DNA of 64,000 bases from Clostridium tepidiprofundi DSM 19306 (GCF_001594005.1 NZ_LTBA01000009.1:1-64000), one strand, 5' to 3'; positions 4,821 to 60,044 are shown, counted from the first letter of the stretch. A program made the numbers and translations. Notes: generated by a model from the letters alone, not told the origin.

Positions 4821-4935
4821 ATCGATTCTATAAGATTTCCATTTCTATAAGTGGGAGATTGAAGCGTTTTGCTTCAGGTGGAATAGAGTCTCCATCTGAA
4901 GTACCGATGTTTTGCTTTAGTAAAACGAGTTCACT
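4821..4935 (+). repeat. structured intergenic repeat, copy A (orientation 1)
   Basis: About 85-90% identical to the copy at 58730-58843 and reverse-complement to copies at 9382-9495, 51461-51574 and 57211-57316; internal hairpins ccattt/aagtgg, cttcaggtgga/tccatctgaag, gttttgc/gtaaaac. Confidence 0.85.
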
Positions 4936-4972
4936 AAAATTCATGTATGTGCTATATAGGAGGGAATATATG

Positions 4973-5920
4973 TCATATATTAATATAAAAAAATTAGAAA
5001 AAGTTTATCATGTTAGGGGTACTTCAGAAAAGATTACGGCTATAAAAGGAATTGATTTAAGTATAGAAAAAGGTGAAATTGTTGGTTTAGTAGGATTAAA
5101 TGGTGCTGGTAAGACGACTTTAATAAAGATGGTATGTGGCATAATAAAACCTACGGCAGGTGAAATTACAATAGGTAAGTATATTCCTTACGATAGAAAA
5201 CGAGAATTCTTAAGAAGTATAGGGTTAGTTATGGGTCAAAGGACACAATTATGGTGGGATATAAATCCACTTAATAGTTTTAAAATAGAAAAAGAAATTT
5301 ATAAGATTTCTGATATAGATTATAATAACAGGATAGAGTATATGACTTCATTATTGGATATAAAAGATAAATTACATACACCTGTAAGACAATTGTCACT
5401 TGGACAAAGAATGAAAATGGAATTAGTCCTTTGTTTAATACATAAACCTTCTTTATTGTTATTAGATGAACCAACTATTGGACTTGATATAATGAGTCAA
5501 GTAAGTTTGAGAAAATTTATATATGAATATAACAAAAAAATGGGAAATACTGTACTTATAACAAGTCATAATATGAAAGATATAGATGAAATTTGTGATA
5601 GGCTTATATTGCTAGATAAAGGCAAAATAATATTTAACGCTCCCAAATATAAACTTTATGAAAAATATAAAGATATAAATATATTGTGCATAAAAACAAA
5701 TAAAAAAATAGATACATGTGGATATAAATTTATAACAAATGAAGATTATAAAAGTCAAATTATAGTAGAAAAAAGTTGCGTGGAAAAATGTATTTCTGAT
5801 CTTAAGAAAAAAAATAAAATAGATAAGTATTCTATAAATGACGTAAATCTAGAAATTATTATTAGAATGATATATGGAGATTCTTTTAATCAGGATGGTG
5901 TTAAACATGAAGACATTTAA
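4973..5920 (+). CDS. ABC transporter ATP-binding protein
   Basis: Walker A GLNGAGKTT, signature LSLGQRMK, Walker B LLLLDEP; start at MSYINIKKLEK after RBS aggaggg. The upstream 4808-4972 extension in the track is repeat-derived. Confidence 0.85.
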   Translation, partial: SYINIKKLEKVYHVRGTSEKITAIKGIDLSIEKGEIVGLVGLNGAGKTTLIKMVCGIIKPTAGEITIGKYIPYDRKREFLRSIGLVMGQRTQLWWDINPLNSFKIEKEIYKISDIDYNNRIEYMTSLLDIKDKLHTPVRQLSLGQRMKMELVLCLIHKPSLLLLDEPTIGLDIMSQVSLRKFIYEYNKKMGNTVLITSHNMKDIDEICDRLILLDKGKIIFNAPKYKLYEKYKDINILCIKTNKKIDTCGYKFITNEDYKSQIIVEKSCVEKCISDLKKKNKIDKYSINDVNLEIIIRMIYGDSFNQDGVKHEDI

Positions 5921-6689
5921 AGGAATTTTACTAAATACTTTTATAGAAAGAAAAATATATATGTTTAATACAGTTATGTCCGTATTATTAGGATTTATTC
6001 CTGTATTAGTAATGATATTTCTATGGAATGCAATATATAAAAGTGGACTAAAGATAGATGATTTTAATAAAAATAGCATAATAACATATTTCTTTTTGGT
6101 ATATATAGTGTCTAATATTACAGAAGCATCTAATATAGCTAGAAAAATTAGTGGAGACATACGAAGTGGAGCTATAAATAATATATTGATAAAACCTATT
6201 AATCATTTAAAATATACTTTTTTATTATATTTGTCAGATAAAATAATTGATACAATAATAACAATTATTCCATCAATTGTTTTTGCTTTTCTTGCTAGAA
6301 AATATATAACAATAAATTTACATAAAATGGTACCGTTTTTGTTGGCTCTAATAATAGGGTGTATACTTAACTTTTTAATATATTATATAATTGGACTAAG
6401 TTCTTTCTGGAGTATAAATAATGGAGGTATAATACAACTATGGAATAATTTAATAGCAATAGTATCAGGAAATAAGTTTCCTATATCATTTTTACCTATA
6501 TTTTTTCAGAAAATACTTATATTATTACCGTTTGAATATACGGTGTATTTGCCTATATCTATATTATTAGGGAAAACATTAAGTGTTACTACAATTATGA
6601 TAGAATTTTGTTGGATAATAGTAATGTATATATTATCAAAAATAATATGGAAGAAAGGGGTAGCATTAAATGAAGGAGTTGGTATGTAA
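5907..6689 (+). CDS. ABC-2 type transporter permease
   Basis: Hydrophobic roughly 6-TM protein overlapping the ATPase stop; start at MKTFKG after aggatggtg. Confidence 0.65.
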   Translation: MKTFKGILLNTFIERKIYMFNTVMSVLLGFIPVLVMIFLWNAIYKSGLKIDDFNKNSIITYFFLVYIVSNITEASNIARKISGDIRSGAINNILIKPINHLKYTFLLYLSDKIIDTIITIIPSIVFAFLARKYITINLHKMVPFLLALIIGCILNFLIYYIIGLSSFWSINNGGIIQLWNNLIAIVSGNKFPISFLPIFFQKILILLPFEYTVYLPISILLGKTLSVTTIMIEFCWIIVMYILSKIIWKKGVALNEGVGM

Positions 6690-7453
6690 TGGTATATAAT
6701 AGGCTATTAAAAACTAATTTCTATCGTGAAATGACATATAAAAGTAATTTTTTTACATTTATGATTGTAAACCTTGTAGGATATTTAGGAGATGTTTTAT
6801 TTTACATATTGATATATAATTTTGTGGATTGCATAAATGGGTGGACAAAATATCATATGTTAGGGTTAATTGCAACAGTTTGGATAATAGATAGTCTAAA
6901 TGGGGGTATGTTTCATATGAATGTACTTAGAATTCCAAGGTATGTACAGACATATGATTTAGATTTTATGCTTATTAAGCCAATAAACTCAAGATGGTAT
7001 ATGTCAATGAAATTTGTGAGTTACGGATTATTATTGGGTGTTCCTTTTGGTTCAGCACTTTTAATATATAGTATGGTGAAGGTAGGAATAAGGATATCTG
7101 TGTTTAAGATAATCTTATATGTGATAGCTTTGTTTTCAGGAACTTTAATTATGCATAATATATTTTTTATGATTACTATTTTATCTATAAAACATGTTAA
7201 AGTAAATGCATTAATGAGCGTTTTTTGGAGCATATTAGAGGTTGGTAAATATCCTGAATTTATATATCCATCAAAAATTAGAAAGATTTTTGTGTTTATA
7301 GTTCCGGCTATAGTTATATATAATTATCCAATAAATATACTTGTAAATGAATTTAATATACTAAACGTGTGTATACTATTTAGTATAGCAATTTTATTTA
7401 CACTTATTACCCAATTTACGTGGAAGTATTTCTTAAAATATTATTACAAATAG
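6689..7453 (+). CDS. ABC-2 type transporter permease (second subunit)
   Basis: Hydrophobic 254-aa ORF translationally coupled (ATG overlaps the preceding stop). Confidence 0.65.
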   Translation: MVYNRLLKTNFYREMTYKSNFFTFMIVNLVGYLGDVLFYILIYNFVDCINGWTKYHMLGLIATVWIIDSLNGGMFHMNVLRIPRYVQTYDLDFMLIKPINSRWYMSMKFVSYGLLLGVPFGSALLIYSMVKVGIRISVFKIILYVIALFSGTLIMHNIFFMITILSIKHVKVNALMSVFWSILEVGKYPEFIYPSKIRKIFVFIVPAIVIYNYPINILVNEFNILNVCILFSIAILFTLITQFTWKYFLKYYYK

Positions 7454-7611
7454 AAAATGGTAATATATTATATAAATAATCATAAATATAATAATGAAGT
7501 ATACTAAAAGACAGCTATGCACTATAAAATTGTAATGATATTCTTGAAAAACGGTTTAATTTAATGTATACTGAATATAGTGTATTGTTTTTAATTAATA
7601 ATATATGCTAA

Positions 7612-7640
7612 TTGATAAAAAATAAACAAATTAATATGAT
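7612..7640 (+). promoter_or_regulatory. glp operon promoter: TTGATA, 17 nt, TATGAT
   Basis: -35 at 7612-7617 and -10 at 7635-7640, about 200 nt upstream of glpK. Confidence 0.45.
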
Positions 7641-7666
7641 TATAAACTAAGGTTGAGAAGAGAGAG

Positions 7667-9334: not shown

Positions 9335-9381
9335 TCGGCATAAGAGTATTCAAATGAGCATCAGATATTAAAGAAATGAAA

Positions 9382-9495
9382 GTGAACTCGTGTTTAGCTA
9401 AAGCAAAACATAGGGACTTTGGGTGGAAAATCTATTTTGACTAAAGTAAAAGGCTTCAATCTCCTAATTATAGAAGTAGGAGATTGAAGAAATGA
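9382..9495 (-). repeat. structured intergenic repeat, copy C (orientation 2, more divergent) in the glpK-glpF spacer
   Basis: Reverse-complement alignment to copies A and B (gtgaactcgtgtttagctaaagcaaaac ... tatagaagtaggag). Confidence 0.75.
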
Positions 9496-9556
9496 TGAAA
9501 TATTTAAATTAGCATTAAATATTTAAAAATGCAAATAAATTTGAGGGGGAAAGAGT

Positions 9557-15250: not shown

Positions 15251-15285
15251 ATATAGACCCTCATATTTTATTGTGAGGGTCTATA
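15251..15285 (+). terminator. perfect 13-bp hairpin atatagaccctca / tgagggtctatat
   Basis: Seen directly; weak U-tract. Confidence 0.5.
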
Positions 15286-15416: not shown

Positions 15417-17030
15417 TTGACGAAAAAAAAGAAAGGTGCTTTGGTGGTATCTGTAATAATAATTGTTGTACTGATTTCAGGTTTTTTATATGCTTTTTAT
15501 TCTTACGAAAAGTATAGTCATGTCATCAAAAAAAATAATATAAAATTAAAAGGTGATATTAACACAAAATCGGATGAAAAAGGTGATGAAAATTCTAAAA
15601 AAGAAAAAGATAAATATAAAGAAATTGATGGTATATCAAATATTCTACTGGTAGGTATTGATGCAAGAACGCTTAATGAACCTTCAAGATCAGATGCAAT
15701 AATGATTTTAACATTAGATAATGTACATAAAAAAATAAAACTAACATCGATAATGAGGGACACATATGTAGAAATACCTAAGCATGGAGAGCAAAAAATA
15801 ACACATGCTTTTGCCTATGGAGGAATAGATTTATTAAAGGACACTATTGAAAGGAATTTTAAAATTAAAATTGATAACTTTGCAATTATTAATTTTGATG
15901 GATTTAAGGAATTGATAGATAGTATTGGCGGCTTAGAGATTAATGTAAAAGATAGTGAATTAAGAGAATTAAACAGATGTATATTGTTAGAAATACAAGA
16001 TAATCCAAAGTTAAAATTAAAAGACGCACACTATTTAAAGAAATCTGGCTTGCAACTTTTAAATGGGCAACAAGTACTTGCATATTCAAGAATGAGGCAT
16101 ATAGGAAATGGATGCTATGATAGATCTAAAAGACAGAGATATGTTGTTAATTTAATTGCTGATAAATTAAGGGATACTTCATTGCTCAAATATCCAACTG
16201 TTGCTCAAAAATTGCTTAAATGTGTAAGAACTGATCTGCAGTTTACTGAGGCACTAAATGTTGCATATACGGCATATAAAATAGGAGATTTTAACATAGA
16301 ACAATTGCAAATACCAGCTGATAAGTTAAGTTATGGGCGAATTTATAAGGATAAAGGATGGGTATTGCTAATAGATAAGGAACAAAATACTGATGTTCTT
16401 CATAAATTTATTTTCGATGATATTAAGTATGATCCTTCGAAATATAGGACTTTTATATATAGTAAATCAAAATATTATTATAAGCCACCAGTGGAAAAGA
16501 AAAAGATTGATGAAGATAAAAAACAGGATAATACAGATAAAAATGATGCGGGCAAACAAAAAGATGTTAATAATCAAGATATTAATAATCAAAACGATAC
16601 AGACAAATCAAAAGAAAATAATGAAAAAGATACTATAGATAATTCTAAACATAATAATAAACAAGAAGATAATATTAAGAATGATGATTCTACTAATAGT
16701 GAAACAAAAGATGAACAAGATAATCAAAACAAATTAAATGATAATGATAAGCAAACAAAACAAACAGAAGAAGATGATCAAACGGAAGAAAATAAACAAA
16801 CTGATCAAGATAAACAAACAGAGCAAGATAATCAAAACACTGAACAAAATAAGAATAAGAATAGCCAAAACGATAAAAGCAATGATAATGCAAAAAATAA
16901 AGATAAGCAAAGTGATATAGTAGATTTAGATGATAAAAGTTTTTATGAAGATGCTACTTCGAATGATAAAGTAAATACTAAAGCTAGTAGTGATAATAAT
17001 ACGGATGAAAAATCAAGCGATAAACAATAG
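15417..17030 (+). CDS. LCP family protein (LytR-CpsA-Psr) with a roughly 200-aa D/K/N/Q/T-rich low-complexity C-terminal tail
   Basis: N-terminal TM anchor, LCP core (LLVGIDAR ... SIMRDTYV ... FAYGG ... LAYSRMRH), then a repetitive KQTEQDNQN tail. Confidence 0.8.
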   Translation: MTKKKKGALVVSVIIIVVLISGFLYAFYSYEKYSHVIKKNNIKLKGDINTKSDEKGDENSKKEKDKYKEIDGISNILLVGIDARTLNEPSRSDAIMILTLDNVHKKIKLTSIMRDTYVEIPKHGEQKITHAFAYGGIDLLKDTIERNFKIKIDNFAIINFDGFKELIDSIGGLEINVKDSELRELNRCILLEIQDNPKLKLKDAHYLKKSGLQLLNGQQVLAYSRMRHIGNGCYDRSKRQRYVVNLIADKLRDTSLLKYPTVAQKLLKCVRTDLQFTEALNVAYTAYKIGDFNIEQLQIPADKLSYGRIYKDKGWVLLIDKEQNTDVLHKFIFDDIKYDPSKYRTFIYSKSKYYYKPPVEKKKIDEDKKQDNTDKNDAGKQKDVNNQDINNQNDTDKSKENNEKDTIDNSKHNNKQEDNIKNDDSTNSETKDEQDNQNKLNDNDKQTKQTEEDDQTEENKQTDQDKQTEQDNQNTEQNKNKNSQNDKSNDNAKNKDKQSDIVDLDDKSFYEDATSNDKVNTKASSDNNTDEKSSDKQ

Positions 17031-17069
17031 TTTATCTTAAGGAGTTGGTTACGAAAAGGAGAGATATAA

Positions 17070-18548
17070 GTGTCTAAAAGTAAAAAGATTATTTTAGGAA
17101 TAATAATAGCATGTATTACGGCAGTCGTGTTTGCAGGGGTTTCTTACTATTCTTATGTTTATTATTCCTATAAGAAAACTAGTTATGTTGAGGAAAAAGA
17201 ACAAAATCAAAGTAACGACAATGAAAACAATAAAGAGATAAATAATAGAGATAAAAAAGTAGATAATAGCAATGAAAATGACAATAAAGAGAGCAATAAA
17301 AATAATGATAAAGAAGAATTAAAATATAAAGAGGTTGAAGGAATAACAAATATATTGTTAGTTGGGACAGATGCTAGAGATTATACTAAAAAGTCAAGAG
17401 CAGATACTATAATGATTTTAACAATAGATGATATTCACAAAAAAATAAAATTAACTTCCATAATGAGGGATACATATGTATCAATTCCGGGGCATGGTGA
17501 ACAAAAAATAAATCACTCATTTGCATACGGCAAAGCATCGTTGTTAATGAAGACTATAGAATCGAATTTCAATATTAAGTTGGATAAATATGCTGTAATA
17601 AATTTCTTTGGATTTAAAGATTTAGTAGATACGATAGGTGGATTAGATATAAATGTAAGTGAAGCTGAAAGGAAAGAATTAAACAGATGTATAATAGGAT
17701 TAGAAAATTATAAAAAGGATTTCTTTGGAGAGAAACCTCACTACTTAAAAAAATCTGGTTTGCAGCATTTGGATGGACAACAGGTTTTAGCGTATGCTAG
17801 AATGAGGCACATAGAAAGAGGTTGCTATTCAAGAGATGAAAGGCAAAGAAAAGTTGTTAATATGATTGCTAAAAAATTAAAAAATATATCTATACTAAAA
17901 TATCCTGAAGTGCTTTCAAAATTATTTCCTTGTGTTAAGACTAATATAGAATTTACTGAGGCACTCAATTTAGGATATACTATATACAAAATAGGAGATT
18001 TGAACATAAAACAACTTCAAGTTCCAGCAACAAAATTAAGTCATGGAATGATATATAAGAATAAAGGATGGGTTTTACTTATAGATAAAACTCAAAATAC
18101 AAATATGATTCATAACTTTATTTTCAAAGATATTCCCTATGATGCTTCTAAATATAAAATGTTTGACTATGTTAAATCAAGATATTATTATAAACCTCAA
18201 ATTAAGGATAATAGCAAGAAAATATCAACCAAAATTAATGACAGTATTACTGATAATACGAGTGGCAAGAGTATTATTAAAGATAGTAAAAAGAATAGTA
18301 AAAAGGATGATAAAAAAGATAACGATATTAGGAATGCCAATAAGACTGATAACAAAAATGATAATAAAACTGATGAAAAAATCAATAATAAAGATAAAAA
18401 CGATACTGTGTTTGATTTGGATGATAAAGAATTTTATACCAATGGTGTCCAAAATAATAGTGATACCAATAATGGAAATGAGCTAATAAATGATAAAAAT
18501 GATAAAAATGATAAAAAAAATACCGAGGACACAAAAAACCCTGATTAA
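17070..18548 (+). CDS. LCP family protein paralog with a D/K/N-rich low-complexity tail
   Basis: Same LCP core blocks as the upstream paralog, about 60% identical by eye; GTG start after aaaaggagag. Confidence 0.8.
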   Translation: MSKSKKIILGIIIACITAVVFAGVSYYSYVYYSYKKTSYVEEKEQNQSNDNENNKEINNRDKKVDNSNENDNKESNKNNDKEELKYKEVEGITNILLVGTDARDYTKKSRADTIMILTIDDIHKKIKLTSIMRDTYVSIPGHGEQKINHSFAYGKASLLMKTIESNFNIKLDKYAVINFFGFKDLVDTIGGLDINVSEAERKELNRCIIGLENYKKDFFGEKPHYLKKSGLQHLDGQQVLAYARMRHIERGCYSRDERQRKVVNMIAKKLKNISILKYPEVLSKLFPCVKTNIEFTEALNLGYTIYKIGDLNIKQLQVPATKLSHGMIYKNKGWVLLIDKTQNTNMIHNFIFKDIPYDASKYKMFDYVKSRYYYKPQIKDNSKKISTKINDSITDNTSGKSIIKDSKKNSKKDDKKDNDIRNANKTDNKNDNKTDEKINNKDKNDTVFDLDDKEFYTNGVQNNSDTNNGNELINDKNDKNDKKNTEDTKNPD

Positions 18549-19822: not shown

Positions 19823-20002
19823 GAATATTTTATCACATTTTAGTACTAAAGAATATTTTTCATGATAAAAAGTAAATAAAAATAAGTAATAAAAACAATA
19901 TTATTTTAATAAAATTTTAAAGGAAAAATTATGATTATATAGAAATAAATAATATAAATTATATAATGGTTAAAGGAGAGATCGGTTAAAGGGGAGATGT
20001 AT

Positions 20003-20641
20003 ATGTCATCTTGGTGGAACAACCTTACAGGGTTTCAAAGGTTTTTTTGGGGAATGGCAATTCCGTTTACAGTATTGTTCATTATTGAAATGATTATCAT
20101 GGCTATGGGAATTGATAATAGTGGCGATTTTGATGGTGATTTGAGTAGTAGTGGAGATGTAGATAATGGAATTGATATAGACATTGATGATAATTCGGAC
20201 ATGAAGATTCCTTTGAATTTTAGATTATTTACTATTAGAAATTTTATTATTTTTGGTGCCATTTTTTCTTGGGCAGGTATTGTAGGTATTAAAAACAATT
20301 ACAGTAAGTTTAAAACATTAGTTTTTGCGTTTTCACTTGCATTTGTAGTTGTTTTGATATTATCAATAATTTTCTGTTTATTGTTAAAGGCAACTCAAAG
20401 TGGAACTATGGACTTAAAGAATGCAATAGGCAGTGAAGGAGAAGTATATTTTACTATTCCTGAAAATGGAAAGGGGGAAGGTAAGATACAAGTGATTATT
20501 CAAGGAGCACTTAGAGAATTGGAGGCGATAAGTAACAAGGGGGAGATTAGAACAGGCGAAAAGGTAAGGGTGATAGGTATCAATGAGAAAAATAAATTGA
20601 TAGTTGAACCAATAATATTAATTGATGAAGGGGAGATATAA
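20003..20641 (+). CDS. NfeD-like membrane protein with C-terminal OB-fold (YuaF-like)
   Basis: TM helices plus a C-terminal beta-rich domain, immediately upstream of and coupled to the flotillin gene. Confidence 0.6.
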   Translation: MSSWWNNLTGFQRFFWGMAIPFTVLFIIEMIIMAMGIDNSGDFDGDLSSSGDVDNGIDIDIDDNSDMKIPLNFRLFTIRNFIIFGAIFSWAGIVGIKNNYSKFKTLVFAFSLAFVVVLILSIIFCLLLKATQSGTMDLKNAIGSEGEVYFTIPENGKGEGKIQVIIQGALRELEAISNKGEIRTGEKVRVIGINEKNKLIVEPIILIDEGEI

Positions 20642-20643
20642 TA

Positions 20644-22074
20644 ATGGGTGGAATAGTATTAATTACTATTATTGCAGTTGCGATTTTTATAACTGTTATA
20701 GCATTGCTTTCAAGATACAAGAGATGTCCTTCTGACAAAATACTTGTTATTTACGGTAAGACTGGTAAAAGCAGAGAAGGTGTAGCTAGATCTGCTAGAT
20801 GTATTCACGGTGGAGCTGCGTTTGTTTGCCCAATAATTCAGAGTTATGAGTTCTTAGATTTGACTCCAATGTCCATTGAAGTAAATCTTACTAATGCATT
20901 GAGTAAGCAGCACATAAGAGTCGATGTTCCATCGAGATTTACTGTTGGTATTTCTGTAGAAGAAGGTATTATGACTAATGCTGCAGAAAGATTATTAGGG
21001 CTTAAAACTAGTCAAATTCAGGATTTAGCAAAAGATATCATTTTTGGTCAGCTTAGATTGGTTATAGCTACCATGGATATTGAAGAGATAAATTCTGATA
21101 GAGATAAGTTTTTAGCAAATGTAACAAGTAATGTTGAAGCTGAACTTAAGAAAATAGGTCTTAAACTTATAAATGTAAATATTACTGATATTAATGATGA
21201 ATCAGGATATATTGAAGCTTTAGGTAAAGAGGCTGCAGCTAAAGCAATTAATGATGCTAAGAAGAGTGTTGCTGAAAAGAATAGAGACGGTGCTATTGGT
21301 GAAGCTGAGGCTAAAAGAGAAGAAAGAATTAGAGTATCTGAAGCTAATTCTAAGGCTGTTGAGGGTGAAAACATTGCAAAAATTACAGTTGCTAATTCAG
21401 AAGCAGAAAGAAGATTAAAACAAGCAGAAGCAGAAAGAAAAGCAGTTGCAGCAGAAAAAGTTCAAGCTGCTAAAGCATTGGAAGAAGCATATGCTGCTGA
21501 AATGGAATCTGAAAAAGCTCGTGCAGAGAGAGAAAGAGCAACTAAATATGCGGATGTTGTAGTACATGCTGAAATTGAAAAACAAAGAGTTGAAATTGAA
21601 GCAGAGGCTGAGGCAGAAAAAATAAGACGACATGCAAAAGGTGAAGCAGATGCTATATTAGCTAAAATGGAAGCAGAAGCAAAAGGTGCTATGGAAATAC
21701 TTTCAAAACAAGCTGAAGGTTTTGAGAAACTTGTTAAAGCAGCAGGCAATAATTCTAAAGATGCAGTTATGCTTATGATTGCAGACAAATTACCTGAGAT
21801 TGCTAAAATTCAAGCAGAAGCTATTAAAAATATTAAATTTGATAAGATTACTGTTTGGGACACTATGGGTGGTAAAGGAGATGGTACTTCATCAACAGCT
21901 AATTTCTTGTCTGGTATGATGAAAACTATTCCTCCTATGGAAGATGTATTTAAAATGACAGGAATGGAATTGCCAAATTATTTTAAAGGAAAAGTTGATA
22001 ACAATGAAAAAGAGGAGTATAATGAAGTCAAGGTGGCTTCAGTTGTTGAGGATGATGTAAAAGATAATAAATAA
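20644..22074 (+). CDS. flotillin-like SPFH/band-7 protein (FloT/YuaG-like)
   Basis: N-terminal TM, SPFH core, long A/E/K-rich coiled-coil (EAEAEAEKIRRHAKGEADA). Confidence 0.85.
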   Translation: MGGIVLITIIAVAIFITVIALLSRYKRCPSDKILVIYGKTGKSREGVARSARCIHGGAAFVCPIIQSYEFLDLTPMSIEVNLTNALSKQHIRVDVPSRFTVGISVEEGIMTNAAERLLGLKTSQIQDLAKDIIFGQLRLVIATMDIEEINSDRDKFLANVTSNVEAELKKIGLKLINVNITDINDESGYIEALGKEAAAKAINDAKKSVAEKNRDGAIGEAEAKREERIRVSEANSKAVEGENIAKITVANSEAERRLKQAEAERKAVAAEKVQAAKALEEAYAAEMESEKARAERERATKYADVVVHAEIEKQRVEIEAEAEAEKIRRHAKGEADAILAKMEAEAKGAMEILSKQAEGFEKLVKAAGNNSKDAVMLMIADKLPEIAKIQAEAIKNIKFDKITVWDTMGGKGDGTSSTANFLSGMMKTIPPMEDVFKMTGMELPNYFKGKVDNNEKEEYNEVKVASVVEDDVKDNK

Positions 22075-22097
22075 AAATATATTTGCAATTATAATTT

Positions 22098-22124
22098 AAT
22101 CCCCCTGGGTAAGCTAGGGGGATT
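22098..22124 (+). terminator. terminator hairpin aatccccct / agggggatt
   Basis: Perfect 9-bp GC-rich stem after the flotillin stop. Confidence 0.65.
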
Positions 22125-23470: not shown

Positions 23471-23640
23471 GAGATTGTGCTTTTGAGTTTTATTCTATGT
23501 ATATTATTTTTGCAAAATTAGAAGTGATCATTTGATATTATGCAAAAACACGAATTATTTAAATGGAATTCATAAAAATATTCGTATTTTTATTGACTAG
23601 TATTAGGGGGTCTGATATTATATATACGGAGGGGATTGCT

Positions 23641-28052: not shown

Positions 28053-28145
28053 TTAAAACCTGTGAGGGAGCAAATAGTTCCTTAATTAAGTATGAAGTGT
28101 TGACATAGATGGGTTAAAAAGTATTGCATGTGATGGAGTAAACAT

Positions 28146-28220
28146 GGCTCCTTGGTCAAGCGGTTAAGACATCGCCCTTTCACGGCGGTAACAGGGGTTC
28201 GATTCCCCTAGGAGTCACCA
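28146..28220 (+). tRNA. tRNA-Glu (TTC)
   Basis: Cloverleaf with anticodon loop cuUUCac and encoded CCA. Confidence 0.9.
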
Positions 28221-28226
28221 TAATGT

Positions 28227-28302
28227 GGGCGCATAGCTCAGCTGGGAGAGCACTTGCCTTACAAGCAAGGGGTCACAGGTTCGAGCCCTGTTGTGCCCAC
28301 CA
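28227..28302 (+). tRNA. tRNA-Val (TAC)
   Basis: GGGCGCATAGCTCAGCTGGGAGAGC, anticodon loop cuUACaa, CCA encoded. Confidence 0.9.
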
Positions 28303-28459
28303 CTTTAAATAAGGTACCAGGTACTAGGAATAAACAAGTTTTTCTCCTAGCACTTAGCATGAATTCTGGTAGCTAGTTGCTAAATCGCGAGTTTGTTTTG
28401 GAGACTAGTGATTAGAGGTTAGCACCTAGACCTAGCACCTAAATCTTATATAATAACGC

Positions 28460-28536
28460 GGCCCGGTGGCTCAGATGGTTAGAGTGCCGGCCTGTCACGC
28501 CGGAGGTCGAGGGTTCGATCCCCTTCCGGGTCGCCA
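28460..28536 (+). tRNA. tRNA-Asp (GTC)
   Basis: Anticodon loop cuGUCac, GGTTCGATCC T-loop, discriminator G, CCA encoded. Confidence 0.9.
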
Positions 28537-28559
28537 AAGTATTTGTCAAGAGTAAATAT

Positions 28560-28634
28560 GGCTCCTTGGTCAAGCGGTTAAGACATCGCCCTTTCACGGC
28601 GGTAACAGGGGTTCGATTCCCCTAGGAGTCACCA
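28560..28634 (+). tRNA. tRNA-Glu (TTC), second copy
   Basis: Identical to the 28146-28220 copy. Confidence 0.9.
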
Positions 28635-28640
28635 TAATGT

Positions 28641-28716
28641 GGGCGCATAGCTCAGCTGGGAGAGCACTTGCCTTACAAGCAAGGGGTCACAGGTTCGAAC
28701 CCTGTTGTGCCCACCA
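28641..28716 (+). tRNA. tRNA-Val (TAC), second copy (T-loop ttcgaAc vs ttcgaGc)
   Basis: Identical to the first copy except one T-loop position. Confidence 0.9.
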
Positions 28717-28873
28717 CTTTAAATGAGGTACCAAGTACTAGGAATAAGCAAGTTTTTCTCCTAGCACTTAGCATGAATTCTAGTAGCTAGTTGCTAAATC
28801 GCGAGTTTGTTTTGGAGACTGGTGATTAGAGAGTGGTACTTAGATTTAGCACTTAAATCTTGTATAATAACGC

Positions 28874-28950
28874 GGCCCGGTGGCTCAGATGGTTAGAGTG
28901 CCGGCCTGTCACGCCGGAGGTCGAGGGTTCGATCCCCTTCCGGGTCGCCA
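28874..28950 (+). tRNA. tRNA-Asp (GTC), second copy
   Basis: Identical to the 28460-28536 copy. Confidence 0.9.
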
Positions 28951-28955
28951 AATAT

Positions 28956-50206: not shown

Positions 50207-50554
50207 AAAAATTCTCCTTTCTTAAATAATCTATATATTTATTTTTTACATAAAATAAAATAGAATACGGATAAATTCTTGTTAGAATAAAATGAATAAT
50301 ATTCAAGACCTATAATATTGTTGTATTAAGTGATATAATACTTGGTATAAAGTAAAAGTAAGAGTAAAAGTAAATATGTTTAATTATGTAATGAATAAAT
50401 ATTATGATAGTTATTTTGATTAATTCAGTATCACAAATTGATGTGCTAAGTTATTTGTGAACTATTGTAATGATATTGCATATTAAAGCAATATATATTT
50501 AATATGGAGGTGAATATTAGCTTAAATATCTATGGTGGTATTGTTAAGCTAGAA

Positions 50555-51460: not shown

Positions 51461-51574
51461 AGTAAATTCGTTTTGCTAAAGCAAAATATCGAGACTTCAG
51501 GTGGAGACTCTACTCCACCTGAAGCAAAAGCTTCAAACTTCCACTTATAGAAGTGGGAGTTTTGTAAAATCGAT
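51461..51574 (-). repeat. structured intergenic repeat, copy D (orientation 2)
   Basis: Reverse complement aligns along its full length with copies A and B; perfect hairpin cttcaggtgga / tccacctgaag. Confidence 0.85.
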
Positions 51575-51690
51575 AAATTTGTTATGTTATTTATATAATA
51601 ATTATGTAAAATAAAGAATATTTTACATTGAAATTAACCCTCAAAATATACAATATTTAAATTTTATCACTATATTTTACACAAAAAATT

Positions 51691-51699: not shown

Positions 51700-51784
51700 T
51701 AAAACGAGTATGAATAAATTATATTTTTTAAAATCATGTGTATTGAGGTAATTTAAAATAATATTAAATTTTGGAAGTGATATA

Positions 51785-54700
51785 GTGAAGATTATTAATA
51801 ATAGATATAGAATAATAAGAAAATTATCTCATAGTAAAGTCAAATCATCTTTTCTTGTATCAGATGTACTAAAAAATAGCAAAAGGGTAAAAATTGATAT
51901 TTTAAATTCTGAATACATTCCAGAAAAATTAATAAATTTTTATGTGGAGTCTTTTATTAAGTTGAGCAATATAATTAGTTCTAATATAATTAGAGTATAT
52001 GATTTTGGATTAGTAAAATTCATTGACAGCAAAGCACTAGAGAAGAAACAATATTTTTATACTTCTGAATATTTTGAAAAAAGCGAAAAACTTATAGACG
52101 TTGTAAATATAGAGGATAATGAGAATATTTTAGAATTTTTTGTTCAAATTTGTTATGCAATTAATTATCTTCATTTGAGAGGTATGTTTTATAATAGTAT
52201 AAATACTGACAATATATTAATTATAAAGGATAATGGTACAAAAAGAGTTATGTTAAAAGATATGGCTTCGATTGAATTGGAAAAATATTTTTATTCTCAG
52301 GGAAAAGGAAATATTAAATATTCTAGCAAATCATCGATTTTGTATAATAATATGGCTAGTAATAGTACAGATATGTATCTTTTAGGCGAATCTATGTTTT
52401 ATCTTTTATGCAAAAAAAATAATAGATTTGAAGAGACATATGCATATGATGAATTGATAGAAAAGATAGATGAGTTTGCGTTATACCATTGTGATAATGA
52501 ATTTGATTTAAATATATTAAAAATAATAAGAAATATGGTTAAAGAGCCATCAGATAGACAATTTGAAAATATTGGACAAGTTATAGAAGAAATAAACAAA
52601 ACATTTAATAAACAATATAAATATTATAAAAGGAATGAAATAGAGAGACTTACATTTAATTTTGAGTTAATAGGAAGAGAATATGAAAAATCGGAAGTAA
52701 TAAAAACGTATGATATGATAAAAAATGGTGCAATATCTAGTAGTTTTATATTTATACATGGTGAAATGGGTATAGGAAAGACTAAATTATTGAAGAATAT
52801 TGAATATACTTTAAGATTAGATGGTGCTAATATTTATTCGTCGTATGGTCTTAATATGGTAAATAAAGGTACGAATAAAGCTTTTATTGAAATTTTAAAG
52901 AAGATTATTATTGAGAGTAATAATATAAATTTGAGTAAATATGATTCAGAATTAATCAAATTTATTCCTGAATTGAGCAAAAGAAGAAATGTCATCCCAT
53001 CAAAACCGTTAGATGGAAATAAAGAAAAGCTTAGATTGATAAACAGGAGTTCTGGATTTGTAAATGAAGTAATTTGCAATAGAAAAGTTGTTTTTATAAT
53101 AGATAATTTTCATTTAGCAGATGAATTTACCATTGATTTTTTTAAATATCTATTGTTTCATGATTTGGGTAATTTTTTATTTGTTGTATCATATTGTGAT
53201 GGTGAATGTTTATTAAATAAAGAATTTATCAGATTTATGAATGAGATTTTTCAAAAATCAAATTCAAAAAGAATCTTGTTAGAGGGATTGAATATTGGTC
53301 AAACATCAAAGATGATTCAGAACATTTTAAATATGCCTAAAGAACCAATGAAATTCACGGAAAGTATTTATGCCAAAACACGTGGTAATCCGCTGTTTGT
53401 TAAGGAAATTATAAAGAATTTATTCACAAAAAAAATTATTTATATTGATAAAAAAACGGGTCAGTGGTTTACAGATTATAAAAATGAAGAGTTGCCTATA
53501 CCAATAAATATTGAGCAAGCGGTATTAGTTCAAATAAAAGAAACTGATGAGTTTTCATATAAAATTTTATCAATAATTTCCATATTCAACAAACCTGTTT
53601 CTATAAACATAATAAAAGAATTTATAGATGCAGATAAAGAAAAAATTGAAAAAACAGTTGAATGTTTAATGACTAAAGGAGTTTTATGTAAACATATTGA
53701 GGATAAAGGATTTGCATATGATTATTACAATATGATTTTAAAAAATGCAATATATAATAAGATTTGCATAGAGGATAGGAATAAAAACCATAAATTAGCT
53801 GCTGCTATACTTGAAAACCAGTATAAGGATGGTAGGGAAGAATACTTACAGGAATTGATATATCATTTAGAGCGGTCATATCAAAAACAAAAAATAATTG
53901 ACTATTGCGTAAAAAATTCTCAAAAAATGTTAAAATTTAAAAATACAAGTGATGCCTTAAAAAATTTGGAAAAAGCATTGTCAATGTATGATAAGGAGTC
54001 GGTAGAGCAAAATAAAATAGATATAGTGTATTTAATAGCTAATATATATTTTGAAAATTCAGAATATGATTTAGCAATGACATATTTCAGAAATTTGATA
54101 GATATTTCTATAAATGTAGGTAATAAAATATATCAAATTTATGCTATGAATAAAATTGCAAAAATATATATGGATAGAAATAAATTTGATATAATGAAAG
54201 ATATAATAAAAGAAGTGGAAAAATTATTACGAAATGTAAAATGTATAGAAGGATATATAGAATGGAGTTATTTACAAGCATATGTTTATTTAATCAATCA
54301 AGAATATAAAAAAGGTGAAGAATTATGTGAGAAATCTTTAAAATTATGCGGAAATAAATGTTATGAACTTAAAGGTAGACTTTATAATATTCTTGGTAAT
54401 ATTTATTTACAGAATTCTGAAACAGATAAAGCTATAATGTGTTTTAAGGCTAGTATTATAAATTTTGAAGTTGTTAAGCAAATAAAAGGAGTTATAATTG
54501 CATCGAATAACATTGGAGTAATATATGGCGATTTTTATCAAAATTTTGATGAGGCATTAAAATATTATTACAAAATACTTAAAATATGTATTGATAATAA
54601 TTTTATATTATGGGAAACTAAAGTAAAAACAAACATTGCATCAATATATTTTAATAAAACGAATTATAAAATGGTAATAGAATATTTGGAAAATGTTATT

Positions 54701-57193
54701 GATGTGTGTGAAAAAAATAATTTTAAAGGATACTTGTTTAATGCCTATGTAGTTATTGCAAATACATATTTAAGAATTAATAAATTTGATAAGGCGTTCA
54801 AATATTATCAGATAAGCAGTGATGAAATGGATGAACAAATAGATAAGATAAGATTTTCTGGCGAATATAGAATAATGGAAGCAGAGTTGCATTTGAAATT
54901 TGGTGATATAAAAATAGCAAAGGAAAGTATTGGAAAAGCTTTAAATATATATAAGTATGAGAAGTCTATACTAAAAACTAAAGCTGAATTATTATTGTTT
55001 ATAATTAATATTTTAGATGGTCAGGAAAATATAGATGATAATATCATTGTAGAGTTTAAAGATATATTAGGTAGATATTCAAATATTGAGAATAGGTTAG
55101 AAATTATATATGAGGTGTGTATTCATCTATATAAAAATAAAAAAAATGATTTATTATATAAAATTTTTAATTATGCTGAAAAATTAGATTGTGATATAAA
55201 ACAAAAATGTATAAAAGCTAAACGATTATTTTTAAAGTCATTATTTGAAAAAAATGAATTAAAAAAATTAGAATTATTGATAAATGCATTAGACATGAGT
55301 AAAGATGATAAGTGTATTTGTTGGAACATATATGTTGATATGGGAGATTATTATTTTAGAAGAAGTAGATATTACTATGCACTAATTTATTATTTTGAAG
55401 CATGTCATGTAGCTAAAAGTTTATTATTATCTATTCCTGAGAATTATAGAGTTAATTTTGCTAAATTTAAATGTATTTCAGAACCATTTAATAAATTTAT
55501 AAATGCAAAAAATTATATCAATAATTGTAGTTATTTGGATGTTTGTAATAAGGGGATAACTTCTTTAGGAGATATTAATGAATTATTTTCATTTGTTGAC
55601 TACAATGATGTCATAAATGATGAAAAAATTATTTGTTTTGCTAGAAAATTATATAATTTATCTTTTTATGATGATGTTAGGGACATTAACGACGTATTAA
55701 TATATTTGAATAATAATGATGTTAGTAATATTAATATGATAAATAAATATATGGCTTATATGACATTAGCGAGTACAAGTTTGATAATATTGGATGAAAA
55801 TGATGAATTTAATGTAATTGCCTCAACTAGTGCAAATACAGTACTTGATAAAGATAAACTTAAAATAATAAATAAAGTTAAGGATACTTCGAATGTTTTG
55901 ATGGTTTCTAAATTTTATAATAGTTTATATGAAGTAGGTATACTTCCTAAGGATATGAGTGCAGTTATGTGTTTGCCTATTATAATAAATGATGTATATG
56001 ATGATTGCTTTGAAGATAATAGAAGAAAGAATATGTTTGATAGAGAAATTATTCAAGGATATATTTACATGGAGTCTAACAGAAGTTTAAATAATTTTAC
56101 ATATACTACGCTTAAAGAGTGTTTGATTGTAAGTAAATTAGTAGGCGTAATACTTGATAAAATCAAAATAAAAACAGATGCATCTATTGATAAATTAACT
56201 GGTACTTTGACTAGAAAATATTTGGAGTTAAATATAAAAGAAGTATTAGAAAAAGCTAATAATTATGGCGGAAAGTTTTCTATGATAATGTTTGATTTAG
56301 ATGATTTTAAAAGTATAAATGATAATTTTGGTCATCAGACAGGAGATTTTGTTCTCTCTAAAATATGTGAAATAGTTAAAAAGAGTATTAGAAAATCTGA
56401 TATATTAGGAAGATATGGAGGGGAAGAATTTATAGTGATACTTCCTAATACTGATATTGATGATGCAGAAATTGTTGCTGAAAAGTTAAGAAGTAATGTC
56501 CATAATTCGAGATTATTAGGTGATAAAAGGGAAATCACGATTAGCATGGGGTTGGTGAACTATCCTAGACATGCCCAATGGGGTAACGAGCTTATTGAAA
56601 AAGTTGATCAGGCATTATATGTTGCTAAAGAAAATGGTAAAAATCAATATAGAGTATGGAGCGATGAGTTTAAAGATACTATAAAGAGAAGTAATAAGCT
56701 TTCAGGAATTATTACTGGAAATTCGGTTCAAGATCAAAGAAATGTACTTACTATGATTGAATTGGTTAATTTAATTGATGAAGAACTTAGTAAAGATGAG
56801 AAAATATTTAAATTTTTGGGGAGGATTATTGAAACTACAGAGGCGGAAAAGGGAATGTTAGCAATTGTTAAAAACGGAAGAATAGAAAAAAAATATTGCA
56901 GAGAAATATTTAAGTCAAAGTACGTAGAAAATATAAATTATAATGAAAATATTATTAATTTTGTTATATCAAAAAAAGAAGGAACTTATCTAATTGATTG
57001 GGATAATATAACTAAATATAACAATATTACAGGTGTGCCCGACTGGAATTCAGTGATCTGTGTGCCAATTACCCAAAATAAAACAGTGCTTGGGGTGGTA
57101 TATCTATGCGTATCTACAGCTCAAAAGGAATTCAATTTTGGTGATTTTAATTTTGTTAATATACTCTCTGAGCTTGCTATACCGATTATTTAA
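51785..57193 (+). CDS. 1,802-aa multidomain signalling protein: degenerate Ser/Thr kinase-like domain, STAND-type ATPase (AAA_16-like), TPR repeats, GAF, GGDEF diguanylate cyclase, C-terminal GAF
   Basis: Kinase-like N-terminus lacking the HRD Asp (YNSINTDNILI) and the Gly-loop glycines; Walker A GEMGIGKT, Walker B VVFIIDNFH; long TPR region; GGDEF motifs DLDDFKSINDNFGHQTGD and RYGGEEF; GAF-like CVPI ... GVVYL at the C-terminus. Confidence 0.85.
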   Translation: MKIINNRYRIIRKLSHSKVKSSFLVSDVLKNSKRVKIDILNSEYIPEKLINFYVESFIKLSNIISSNIIRVYDFGLVKFIDSKALEKKQYFYTSEYFEKSEKLIDVVNIEDNENILEFFVQICYAINYLHLRGMFYNSINTDNILIIKDNGTKRVMLKDMASIELEKYFYSQGKGNIKYSSKSSILYNNMASNSTDMYLLGESMFYLLCKKNNRFEETYAYDELIEKIDEFALYHCDNEFDLNILKIIRNMVKEPSDRQFENIGQVIEEINKTFNKQYKYYKRNEIERLTFNFELIGREYEKSEVIKTYDMIKNGAISSSFIFIHGEMGIGKTKLLKNIEYTLRLDGANIYSSYGLNMVNKGTNKAFIEILKKIIIESNNINLSKYDSELIKFIPELSKRRNVIPSKPLDGNKEKLRLINRSSGFVNEVICNRKVVFIIDNFHLADEFTIDFFKYLLFHDLGNFLFVVSYCDGECLLNKEFIRFMNEIFQKSNSKRILLEGLNIGQTSKMIQNILNMPKEPMKFTESIYAKTRGNPLFVKEIIKNLFTKKIIYIDKKTGQWFTDYKNEELPIPINIEQAVLVQIKETDEFSYKILSIISIFNKPVSINIIKEFIDADKEKIEKTVECLMTKGVLCKHIEDKGFAYDYYNMILKNAIYNKICIEDRNKNHKLAAAILENQYKDGREEYLQELIYHLERSYQKQKIIDYCVKNSQKMLKFKNTSDALKNLEKALSMYDKESVEQNKIDIVYLIANIYFENSEYDLAMTYFRNLIDISINVGNKIYQIYAMNKIAKIYMDRNKFDIMKDIIKEVEKLLRNVKCIEGYIEWSYLQAYVYLINQEYKKGEELCEKSLKLCGNKCYELKGRLYNILGNIYLQNSETDKAIMCFKASIINFEVVKQIKGVIIASNNIGVIYGDFYQNFDEALKYYYKILKICIDNNFILWETKVKTNIASIYFNKTNYKMVIEYLENVIDVCEKNNFKGYLFNAYVVIANTYLRINKFDKAFKYYQISSDEMDEQIDKIRFSGEYRIMEAELHLKFGDIKIAKESIGKALNIYKYEKSILKTKAELLLFIINILDGQENIDDNIIVEFKDILGRYSNIENRLEIIYEVCIHLYKNKKNDLLYKIFNYAEKLDCDIKQKCIKAKRLFLKSLFEKNELKKLELLINALDMSKDDKCICWNIYVDMGDYYFRRSRYYYALIYYFEACHVAKSLLLSIPENYRVNFAKFKCISEPFNKFINAKNYINNCSYLDVCNKGITSLGDINELFSFVDYNDVINDEKIICFARKLYNLSFYDDVRDINDVLIYLNNNDVSNINMINKYMAYMTLASTSLIILDENDEFNVIASTSANTVLDKDKLKIINKVKDTSNVLMVSKFYNSLYEVGILPKDMSAVMCLPIIINDVYDDCFEDNRRKNMFDREIIQGYIYMESNRSLNNFTYTTLKECLIVSKLVGVILDKIKIKTDASIDKLTGTLTRKYLELNIKEVLEKANNYGGKFSMIMFDLDDFKSINDNFGHQTGDFVLSKICEIVKKSIRKSDILGRYGGEEFIVILPNTDIDDAEIVAEKLRSNVHNSRLLGDKREITISMGLVNYPRHAQWGNELIEKVDQALYVAKENGKNQYRVWSDEFKDTIKRSNKLSGIITGNSVQDQRNVLTMIELVNLIDEELSKDEKIFKFLGRIIETTEAEKGMLAIVKNGRIEKKYCREIFKSKYVENINYNENIINFVISKKEGTYLIDWDNITKYNNITGVPDWNSVICVPITQNKTVLGVVYLCVSTAQKEFNFGDFNFVNILSELAIPII

Positions 57194-57210
57194 TTGATAA
57201 GGTATTGGTG

Positions 57211-57316
57211 AAGGTGAATATGTTTTGCTAAAGAAAAACATAGGGACTTCAAGTGGAGGCTCTATTCCAACTGAAGTAAAATGCTTCAATTTCCCATTTA
57301 TAGAAGTTCTAATATG
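57211..57316 (-). repeat. structured intergenic repeat, copy E (orientation 2)
   Basis: Aligns with copy D; begins 18 nt after the giant gene stop. Confidence 0.8.
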
Positions 57317-57400
57317 TTTTTTTAAAAATAACTTAAGAAAATATTTTTAACATGAATATATATGTACTATGGATTAATTTTAAAGATAGGGGTATATATT

Positions 57401-58726: not shown

Positions 58727-58729
58727 TTG

Positions 58730-58843
58730 ATCGATTCTATAAGATTCCTACTTCTATAAGTGGGAGGTTAAAGCTTCTTGCTTCAGACGGAGTAGAGTTT
58801 CCACCTGAAGTTCCGATGTTTTGCTTTAGCAAAACGAGTTCGC
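58730..58843 (+). repeat. structured intergenic repeat, copy B (orientation 1)
   Basis: About 85-90% identical to copy A along its full length. Confidence 0.85.
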
Positions 58844-58915
58844 TTTGTAAAAATATAACTTTTTAGAATTATATTCGTATATTATGTGAGGGGGTAAAAA
58901 GAAGGGGGAATTTTA

Positions 58916-59833
58916 ATGAAAAATTTATACAGAAAGTACGTAATAGTGCTATTGCTGGCATTTGCAGTATCCTTTATATTTATTGGATGTGGTGCAGAAA
59001 AGAAGAATTTAAAGGATTCAGCTACCATAACAGAAAGTGCTAGAGATGAAAATAAAAGTGATAGCAAAGGGTCAATGGCTTTAAATGATAATAATTATGG
59101 GCAACATATTAAAGATAATAGCAAAATAATAGTTTACAAAACTATTGAATTAGAAACACTAAAGTTTGATGAAGTAAAAAATAAAATTTTACAGAGAACT
59201 AAAGCATATGGTGGGTATGTACAAAGTTCAAATATAGAAGGTATTGGTATTAGACAAAAACATGATAATGCAAATAGATATGCTAATTTAGTGCTAAGAA
59301 TACCTAAAAATAATCTAAGGAATTTTGAGAATGATATTAACAATCTTGATTGTAGTATTGTTGATATCAGCACAAGAACTGAAGATGTAACAATGCAGTA
59401 TTTTGATACAGAAGCACATTTAAAGTCATTAAAAATTGAAGAAGAAAGATTGTTAAATTTACTCAAAAAGACTGGAGAATTAAAGGACATAATTCAGGTA
59501 GAAAGAGAATTGCAGAATGTTAGATATGAAATTGAAAAATTAACTGGTTCATTGAGAAAATTGGACAATTTAGTTGAATATACAACATTTACTGTGCATA
59601 TACGAGAAGTTCATGAGATTAAAGAAAACCCTGTAACCATGGGAGAACGCATAATAAGTGCATTTAAAACATCTGTTAAATATTTAGTTAAATTCTTCAA
59701 AGAAATTTTGATTATAATATTTGCTATAATTCCTTTTGCAATTGTTTTTGGCATTATAGGATTTATAGTGTACAAAACTATTATAAAATTAAAGAAAAAT
59801 AGTGGACATAATGAAATAGATGATAATAAATAG
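58916..59833 (+). CDS. lipoprotein with coiled-coil region and C-terminal TM anchor (possibly DUF4349; family name from memory, not searchable here)
   Basis: Lipobox FIGC after the signal peptide; central coiled-coil; C-terminal hydrophobic helix. Confidence 0.5.
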   Translation: MKNLYRKYVIVLLLAFAVSFIFIGCGAEKKNLKDSATITESARDENKSDSKGSMALNDNNYGQHIKDNSKIIVYKTIELETLKFDEVKNKILQRTKAYGGYVQSSNIEGIGIRQKHDNANRYANLVLRIPKNNLRNFENDINNLDCSIVDISTRTEDVTMQYFDTEAHLKSLKIEEERLLNLLKKTGELKDIIQVERELQNVRYEIEKLTGSLRKLDNLVEYTTFTVHIREVHEIKENPVTMGERIISAFKTSVKYLVKFFKEILIIIFAIIPFAIVFGIIGFIVYKTIIKLKKNSGHNEIDDNK

Positions 59834-59982
59834 TATATATTTAGTTATCAAATAAAATAATATAAAGTGGATACAATGATAAATCATATTGAATAATATT
59901 CCAATGTGATTTATTATTGTATTATAGCATATATTATTTGTTTGATTAATGTAATGGCTTAGAGTCTTATTTTTTATCAATT

Positions 59983-60044
59983 TTATAGATTCTCGTTTTT
60001 GTAAGTGGAAGATTGAAGCTTTTGTTTCGAAAAACTAGTTCACT
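59983..60044 (+). repeat. truncated repeat copy F (internal-deletion derivative retaining the 5' module and 3' end)
   Basis: tatagattctcgtttttgtaagtggaagattgaagcttttg joined to aaaaactagttcact; the central hairpin module is missing. Confidence 0.6.

Follow-up and report, generated by a model that had tools for sequence, protein, structure and literature searches.

The stretch of DNA analysed here, referred to as the window, comprises 64,000 nucleotides (nt) of Clostridium tepidiprofundi DSM 19306 (NZ_LTBA01000009.1:1-64000), a moderate thermophile isolated from the chimney of a hydrothermal vent, whose draft genome is 3.06 Mb in 175 contigs (PMC4866863). The glycerol kinase encoded in the window shows 100% identity to that of this strain. 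Scattered between its genes, in both orientations, are copies of a hairpin-forming repeat of about 112 nt. The repeat is inserted precisely 3′ of the motif TTTAT without target duplication, its positions differ between close relatives, and it is very probably a palindrome-associated transposable element (PATE), that is, a non-autonomous transposon of the IS200/IS605 family of insertion sequences (IS) and of a kind already described.

Copies of the repeat in the window

The window was re-examined by alignment of the six intervals listed in an initial annotation, with a repeat finder, with an nhmmer profile built from the five long copies and with a covariance model built from 64 copies and run with filters off. 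All four locate every listed copy, offset by only a few bases (Table 1). Although the initial annotation spoke of six full-length copies, its own list gives the actual tally, five full and one truncated. The intervals align as one family and are likewise joined by the repeat finder, as direct and as inverted matches. The long copies are recovered by their own profile at E = 1e-30 to 1e-39 and the short copy, at 59977-60048, at E = 8e-4. The covariance model reports seven places in the window, the same as the profile's and none besides; among them is a right-end-only fragment absent from the initial list, which carries the AAAAACTAGTTCAC variant also present in copy F. A degenerate pattern covering the five long copies finds no match when the window is shuffled 100 times with dinucleotides preserved. 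All window copies are intergenic, as originally stated. The open reading frame (ORF) at 4808-5920 overlaps copy A and is read as over-extended, because AGGAGGG, which resembles a ribosome-binding site, and an ATG follow directly downstream of copy A in the alignment; this ATG is probably the true start.

Table 1. Copies of the repeat, IS605-type remnant and filled/empty site pairs (window positions unless a contig is named)
Feature	Position	Strand	Details
Copy A, full element (112 nt)	4823-4934	+	4818-4935 including adjacent TTTAT and next T; TTTAT 4818-4822; hairpin 1 4836-4857; hairpin 2 4871-4901; hairpin 3 4909-4926; TTCAC terminus, then T at 4935
Copy C, full	9382-9494	-	9381-9499 with flank motif; between glpK and glpF; most diverged copy (94/120 to consensus); adjacent motif TTCAT (9495-9499, - strand)
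Pair (i), empty site	15267-15271	+	Downstream of degV; GACCCTCATATTTTAT/TGTGAGGGTC; full copy in the relative (L002 9537-9657)
Pair (ii), empty site	23489-23493	+	GAGTTTTAT/TCTATG; relative (L033 9371-9486) GAGTTTTAT[CAATC...GAGTTAAG]TCTATA
Right-end-only fragment	33542-33577	-	...GTTTTACTTTAAAAAACTAGTTCAC; E ~0.01-0.04 (profile and covariance model); profile span 33540-33577
Pair (iv), empty site	50287-50291	-	CATTTTAT/TCTAAC; 68-nt short-form copy in L041 (~2618-2685)
Copy D, full	51462-51572	-	TTTAT 51573-51577 (- strand); 51461-51577 with flanks; methionine aminopeptidase gene on one side, 1,802-aa kinase/GGDEF gene on the other
Copy E, left end truncated by ~15-25 nt	57214-57317	-	Begins directly after the stop of the 1,802-aa gene
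Copy B, full	58732-58843	+	58727-58844 with flanks; adjacent motif TTGAT (58727-58731); terminal motif TTCGC
Copy F, short form (66 nt)	59978-60043	+	Without hairpin 2; hairpin 1 degenerate; TTTAT 59973-59977; 59973-60044 with flanks; TTCAC terminus, then T
IS605 (tnpA + tnpB type) right-end remnant (48 nt)	60057-60104	+	GCCCCCACTTTAGCGTGAGCAAGTAGAGGGATAATTCAC; 85% identical to L044; 13 nt past copy F
Pair (iii), empty site	L044-L049 (five contigs)		Inside IS605 tnpB; intact gene, GCATTTAT/TATTC
Pair (iii), filled site	L026, L009 (relative)		GCATTTAT[CAATTC...GAGTTCAC]TATTC

Boundaries and anatomy of the element

For the boundary analysis 67 distinct full copies, pooled from the window and from a close relative of C. 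tepidiprofundi, were aligned with 40-nt flanks. The relative is represented by the contigs of metagenome sample 3300011013 and shows 92-94% nucleotide identity to the window across aligned blocks (hereafter the 93% relative). Per-column information is ~0 in the flanks, exceeds 1 bit from TTTAT onward and is again ~0 directly past ...GAGTTCACT; the flanks of the 67 copies are unrelated to each other. The consensus is TTTAT / CGATTCTATAAGA CTCCCACTT-CTAT-AAGTGGGAG ATTCAAGCTTTTT GCTTCAGGTGGAG-TAGAGT-CTCCACCTGAAG TCCCGAT GTTTTGC-TTTA-GCAAAAC GAGTTCAC / T, in which the mobile unit (CGATTC...GAGTTCAC, ~112 nt) encodes no protein. The adjacent TTTAT is conserved position by position (T 67, T 66, T 56, A 63 and T 65 among the 67 copies) and the terminal TTCAC differs from it at positions 3 and 5. 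Terminal inverted repeats are absent from the 67-copy consensus: CGATTC... at one end shows no complementarity to ...GAGTTCAC at the other.

The unit folds into the three hairpins originally described, with 90.4% of stem cells paired across 64 copies, against 31-52% when the partners are slid by 1-3 columns. Hairpin 1, CTCCCACTT-CTAT-AAGTGGGAG, lies 13 nt inside the left end and hairpin 3, GTTTTGC-TTTA-GCAAAAC, 8 nt ahead of the terminal TTCAC. Copy F indeed lacks the entire central hairpin, and such short forms, consisting of hairpins 1 and 3 only, occur at four loci, one with a clean junction (66 nt in copy F, 68 nt in L041). The initial annotation took the short form as a sign of modular construction. 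Instead of module shuffling we find that sequence has been lost between two 8-nt direct repeats inside the element, TTTTGCTT, one on each side of the central hairpin. The recurrence of short forms that keep hairpins 1 and 3 fits a model in which these two would be the functional ends and the central palindrome would be dispensable. In some copies (L009 10642-10761; L041 11414-11533) the 6-nt loop of this palindrome is inverted, ACTCTA for TAGAGT, with the stem the same, which suggests that the central palindrome may flip.

Filled and empty sites

Comparison of orthologous positions gives four clean filled/empty pairs (Table 1), all of the form TTTAT/T -> TTTAT[C...TTCAC]T. The insert is exactly C...TTCAC, TTTAT pre-exists in all four empty sites and no target-site duplication is seen in any of the four. 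In pair (i) a terminator-like hairpin (window 15256-15281) holds the TTTAT in its loop. Two sites were left out of the clean pairs: the flanks of site D have diverged, and at site C an extra ~46 nt (window 9335-9380, from the glpK stop to copy C) has no counterpart in the glpK-glpF spacer of the relative.

Positions are rarely shared. The site of copy C is without the element in the 93% relative, that of copy B is empty in a second, 80% identical relative (L043) and that of copy F is empty in both L041 and L043. Copy E is the only window copy with a positional counterpart in the 93% relative (L041 9548-9620), where it adjoins a C-terminal fragment of TnpB. Over ~37 kb of orthologous sequence 1 of ~9 copies is thus shared, and the majority of insertions therefore postdate the divergence of the two genomes, which are ~7% apart. 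The spacer that holds copy F and the IS605 remnant listed after it is empty in L041 and L043, so two different IS605-type pieces landed there side by side.

A difference in gene content was noted close to copies B and F. The DUF4349 gene (window 58916-59833, compared with L041 11326-11743) is present in the window and in the 80% relative and missing in the 93% relative, where a full copy of the repeat stands at the deletion junction.

Where copies settle

Intergenic positions account for 67 of 70 copies, with 10 between convergent and 2 between divergent gene pairs; in tandem contexts the element is co-oriented with the genes in 19 cases and anti-oriented in 22. The 45-nt left flank ending in TTTAT folds at <= -8 kcal/mol in 13 of 67 copies, compared with 4.7% of random TTTAT sites, and nearly all of these strongly folding flanks are terminator-like hairpins whose T-run ends in TTTAT. 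The pattern could reflect tolerated positions, accessible single-stranded loops and T-tracts, or both. On the PATE reading, copies remain at sites that tolerate them, chiefly the 3′ ends of genes and positions directly past terminators, and their effects on neighbouring genes are probably incidental; no outward promoter was found above shuffle expectation.

Abundance and distribution

A pattern scan of 185,579 representative genomes, a collection outside which the window's own genome evidently lies, returned only a chance match in Calothrix. The same approach applied to Joint Genome Institute (JGI) metagenomes yielded 32 stretches with the repeat, all from sample 3300011013; four other metagenome matches (L006, L023, L027 and L040) were judged by eye to be chance matches and set aside. 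Viral contigs gave no copy, the single pattern match (L052) having no model match at the pattern position.

In the relative the profile detects ~70 full and 15 partial copies in ~370 kb. Loci of the relative retrieved by way of a protein, a route that does not select for the repeat, have 3 full copies (20 kb) and 3 full with 3 partial copies (21 kb); the window itself has 5 full and 2 partial copies in 64 kb. Extrapolated to 3 Mb rather than counted, this corresponds to roughly 240-440 copies per genome. The initial annotation did not recognize a described family. For the sequence family this stands: literature searches gave nothing on it, and neither the family nor its abundance nor its confinement to one lineage appears to have been reported. 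For the kind of element it does not, PATEs having been described before (PMC3119063, PMC10055086, PMC7290912).

A plasmid search returned only solitary left-end-like remnants, with no transposase gene adjoining, in C. estertheticum (plasmid pCF005-A, L050 1488-1530) and C. tagluense (plasmid pCM008-B, L051 1488-1535), of the form TTTAA/CGA...CTCCCACTTCTATAAGTGGGAG. Both carry the exact hairpin 1 of the window repeat, from which it follows that this hairpin is common to IS605-type ends in other Clostridium species.

A related IS605 and its transposase

The initial annotation had suggested looking for an IS200-like transposase or a TnpB gene elsewhere in the genome. This was the right lead, as both are found in the lineage. 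C. tepidiprofundi DSM 19306 itself encodes a TnpA (P0209 = KYH35229.1) with HIH and the tyrosine intact, on a different contig from the window. It is 91% identical to the TnpA (P0183) of a complete, 1,764-bp IS605 (tnpA + tnpB) from another metagenome (L044), which has TTTAA as its target and a right end ...GGGAGAGTTCAC. The relative holds a decayed IS605 with tnpA and tnpB fragments. Its tnpA matches Pfam Y1_Tnp at 7e-40, its TnpA has ISHp608 TnpA as the best match among solved structures, and P0183 is 92% identical to the relative's copy.

The left ends of the repeat and of the L044 IS605 are homologous. Starting from the target motif they align over 46 nt with a score of 40, against 13.8 +/- 2.6 for shuffles, none of which (0/500) reaches that value. 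At the right ends the two agree in every one of the last 8 nt (GAGTTCAC).

The relative recurrently has the repeat inside the IS605 on which it presumably depends (L015 5990-7441; L026 6661-7302; L009 10438-10915; L002 1645-1842; L010 11187-11291). It stands at ATAAA within tnpB, with the same junction in three contigs; other copies adjoin N-terminal tnpA fragments, and several IS605 copies of the relative have internal deletions. For the TnpB remnant of L041 a PATE-like right end (...AAGTTCATT) was considered and dropped, since comparison with L017 places the boundary of that element at ...GGCAACGG and its similarity to the PATE is no higher than chance.

Nature of the element

The assignment to the PATE class rests on insertion 3′ of a fixed pentanucleotide, absence of target duplication, absence of inverted repeats and subterminal hairpins, the combination that characterizes IS200/IS605 'peel-and-paste' transposition by a Y1 HUH transposase (PMC5027513, PMC10055086). 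The precise insertions and the presence/absence differences between close relatives bear out the earlier proposal of a mobile, non-autonomous repeat. They do not bear out its more specific form, an element of the BOX, repetitive extragenic palindromic (REP) or MITE (miniature transposable element with inverted repeats) type; the unit is asymmetric and 112 nt long, with neither terminal inverted repeats nor target duplication. In the mechanism that we propose, a Y1 HUH TnpA from an IS605 elsewhere in the genome would bind the end hairpins of the top strand when the DNA is single-stranded, cut after the flanking TTTAT and after TTCAC and thereby release a single-stranded circle, which would be pasted 3′ of another TTTAT without target duplication. 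We infer that the TnpA KYH35229.1 moves the element in trans and that single-stranded DNA is the substrate.

Several observations weigh against this assignment. The window has neither tnpA nor tnpB, and no autonomous element with both PATE ends was found in the sequence examined, which does not extend to the flanks of KYH35229.1. The one full-length tnpA of the relative among the fetched loci has lost both HUH histidines (YVN), and the one complete related IS605 recovered uses TTTAA, not TTTAT. Beyond the terminal 8 nt the similarity of the right end to that IS605 is marginal (score 24 against 12.3 +/- 2.4, 1/500). The right-end hairpin, moreover, is unlike both the left-end hairpin (CTCCCACTT/AAGTGGGAG versus GTTTTGC/GCAAAAC) and the right-end hairpin of the IS605. 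By analogy with IS608, the two ends would be expected to have similar hairpins, as a single TnpA binds both; in the complete IS605 (L044) the two hairpins are also only loosely alike. We regard the unlike end hairpins as a caveat on the class, not an exclusion.

Two further misfits concern strand and target. Relative to the G-rich (leading) strand the copies show no orientation bias (36 same, 33 opposite), whereas insertions of IS608 and ISDra2 favour the lagging-strand template (PMC5027513); excision from either strand was observed by Meers et al. (PMC10055086). In 65 of 67 copies the next base after the element is T, which in all four pairs is the target's own; the effective target therefore looks like TTTAT/T, and a requirement of this kind at +1 has no counterpart in the literature consulted. 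The base next to four IS605 right ends is T, A, A and T.

In the IS200/IS605 family the target is read by a DNA guide internal to the element, IS608 itself pairing the target TTAC with the guide AAAG (PMC5027513). Directly 5′ of the foot of the left hairpin, the PATE, with TTAT as its target, has the 4 nt AAGA, and the IS605, with TTAA, has AAGT; the two differ at the one position where the targets differ. The register of IS608 fits these two elements only, the solo left end on the C. estertheticum plasmid not obviously fitting, and the agreement is not counted as evidence.

Two other readings, which taken together we consider very unlikely, are that the central and right hairpins form a guide scaffold read out towards the right end, or that TnpA recognizes the element in a mode different from that of IS608, to which the strict T following the insertion point and the dissimilar end hairpins could point. 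In the guide version each of the several hundred copies might yield an omega-type RNA that takes its guide from the copy's own 3′ flank and serves, in trans, a TnpB- or IscB-like nuclease whose gene lies elsewhere in the genome; the family would then act as a homing or retention system, gene-less and genome-wide. Nothing in the analysis, which covered part of the genome, supports this version, and the strand-symmetric mismatches described below and the recurrent loss of hairpin 2 speak against it. No omega-RNA scaffold was recognized: there is no Rfam match, comparison with the 3′ region of a second tnpB element (L041/L017) is at chance level (18 against 18.5 +/- 2.9) and the similarity to the IS605 right end is the marginal one given above.

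A REP or REPIN (REP doublet forming hairpins) moved by a domesticated REP-associated tyrosine transposase (RAYT), the hairpins being REP palindromes kept for mRNA stabilization or termination, is improbable to a greater degree. It would account for the high copy number, the intergenic location with its 3′-end excess (convergent 10 versus divergent 2) and the ~20% of copies directly after a terminator hairpin; RAYTs belong to the same Y1 superfamily, and one JGI record labels a close TnpA homologue 'REP-associated tyrosine transposase'. The unit, however, is asymmetric, 112 nt long and has unlike ends, and is neither a 20-40-nt palindrome nor an inverted pair of such palindromes. Its ends carry the IS605-type TTTAT/TTCAC and no GTAG/CGTC head, which most REPs possess according to PMC3733652. 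The related TnpA is encoded together with tnpB in a multi-copy IS605 of 1.76 kb, not in a single-copy gene bracketed by REPs, and positional turnover between 93% relatives is rapid.

We give very little credence to a structured RNA (a small RNA, a stabilizer in the 3′ untranslated region or a terminator/attenuator cassette) with a fold selected at each locus. The three hairpins are stable, with fold z-scores for some copies down to -5.7 (top strand) and -7.3 (bottom strand); double changes in the stems exceed expectation (29 cells versus 14.4 in shuffles, 0/500); and hairpin 2 of copy A followed by CCGATGTTTT scores as a weak terminator-like site. Yet both strands fold about equally, and the stem mismatches comprise 89 G:T and 90 A:C. 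An RNA selected on one strand should tolerate G:U and not A:C, and the equal counts therefore argue against it. At the gathering score Rfam reports only seven tRNAs in the whole window, and around copy A only chance-level matches up to E 10. Orthologous sites in the 93% relative are empty with no replacement, copies lie inside tnpA and tnpB coding sequence, and hairpin 2 has been deleted in four independent copies. The evidence says that the repeat is not a functional RNA. The initial annotation had already thought a riboswitch or other cis-regulatory RNA unlikely, and the independence of orientation from the flanking genes (19 versus 22) agrees with that; its alternative of a transcript-stabilizing or attenuating cassette finds no support, the mismatches being strand-symmetric and the copies coming and going between relatives.

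A classical cut-and-paste MITE derived from an inverted-repeat IS (IS630/Tc1, IS1, IS4, IS5 or similar), like RUP or Correia, is scarcely conceivable: size, copy number and intergenic distribution are MITE-like, but terminal inverted repeats are absent, the junction sequences of four out of four pairs contradict a target-site duplication, and the conserved motif lies on the left flank only.

As a PATE, this conspicuous repeat is explained as ordinary selfish DNA and can be annotated by a simple rule, TTTAT / 112 nt / T with three hairpins. The family would be a very compact, high-copy and recently active ends-only derivative of IS200/IS605, restricted to one deep-sea Clostridium lineage and, at the extrapolated 240-440 copies, making up ~1-1.6% of a 3-Mb genome. 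It recurrently lands in tnpA and tnpB of the insertion sequence on which it presumably depends, and departs from the textbook behaviour of IS608 in three respects (no strand bias, unlike end hairpins and T at +1). Such repeats break short-read assemblies and are mistakable for small RNAs or terminators.

Other features of the window

The 1,802-aa gene mentioned above (51741-57281) encodes a kinase/AAA/TPR/GAF/GGDEF protein around which repeat copies and IS remnants cluster; it is ~72% identical to the relative's ortholog, the flanking regions being 90-94% identical. A 2.2-kb segment (19870-22121) with ORFs at 19997-20641 and 20644-22074 is absent from the relative (L033 7961-8004). Two adjacent ORFs at 15417-18548, whose orthologs in the relative belong to the LytR_cpsA_psr family, share ~72% identity in 300-nt stretches at a spacing of 1,710 nt and look like a tandem gene duplication. 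Within the seven-tRNA cluster at 28136-29028 a 300-nt segment is duplicated 414 nt downstream with 95% identity (28136-28435 and 28550-28849).

Comparison with known elements

BOX elements are streptococcal mosaics of boxA, boxB and boxC, and we know of no transposase for them. With these and with REPIN/REP-RAYT systems the window family shares a high copy number, hairpin formation and intergenic location, and REPINs likewise need a relative of the Y1 transposase. According to PMC3337134, a REPIN consists of two short palindromes in a symmetric pair and relies on a domesticated RAYT present as a single copy, whereas the window unit is asymmetric; neither REPIN nor BOX has its TTTAT/TTCAC end structure. 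IS608 and ISDra2, the IS200/IS605 prototypes, have in common with it insertion 3′ of a fixed motif of 4-5 nt, subterminal hairpins and the lack of inverted repeats and duplication. The window family differs from these two in that it codes for no protein, shows no bias to the lagging-strand template, has dissimilar hairpins at its ends and strongly prefers T at +1.

Among PATEs, those of Haloquadratum walsbyi are reportedly linked to IS1341-type elements. They have been known since 2011 (PMC3119063) and, like an element of Halanaerobium hydrogeniformans (PMC7290912), share with the window family short, ends-only derivatives with palindromic ends and no transposase. The Halanaerobium element is present as a single copy of 271 nt and keeps the tnpB end and a 160-nt right end (PMC7290912); the window family, in contrast, is 112 nt, multi-copy and of recent turnover, and retains no tnpB sequence.

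A further parallel is found in Geobacillus stearothermophilus, in which ISGst2 has an adjacent TTTAT and a terminal TTCAC and the same genome holds gene-less PATE-like elements (PMC10055086). Both families are gene-less with IS200/IS605-type ends, share TTTAT/TTCAC, insert without target duplication and reside in thermophilic Bacillota, while their sequences are unrelated apart from these motifs. The total of IS elements with similar ends is 47 in the Geobacillus genome, compared with an extrapolated few hundred copies of the window family, and PATEs often encode an omega RNA according to the same report (PMC10055086), whereas no such scaffold was recognized here. The PATE-like elements of Geobacillus are predicted to be moved in trans by one TnpA (PMC10055086), and it is the same arrangement that we propose for the repeat of C. 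tepidiprofundi.

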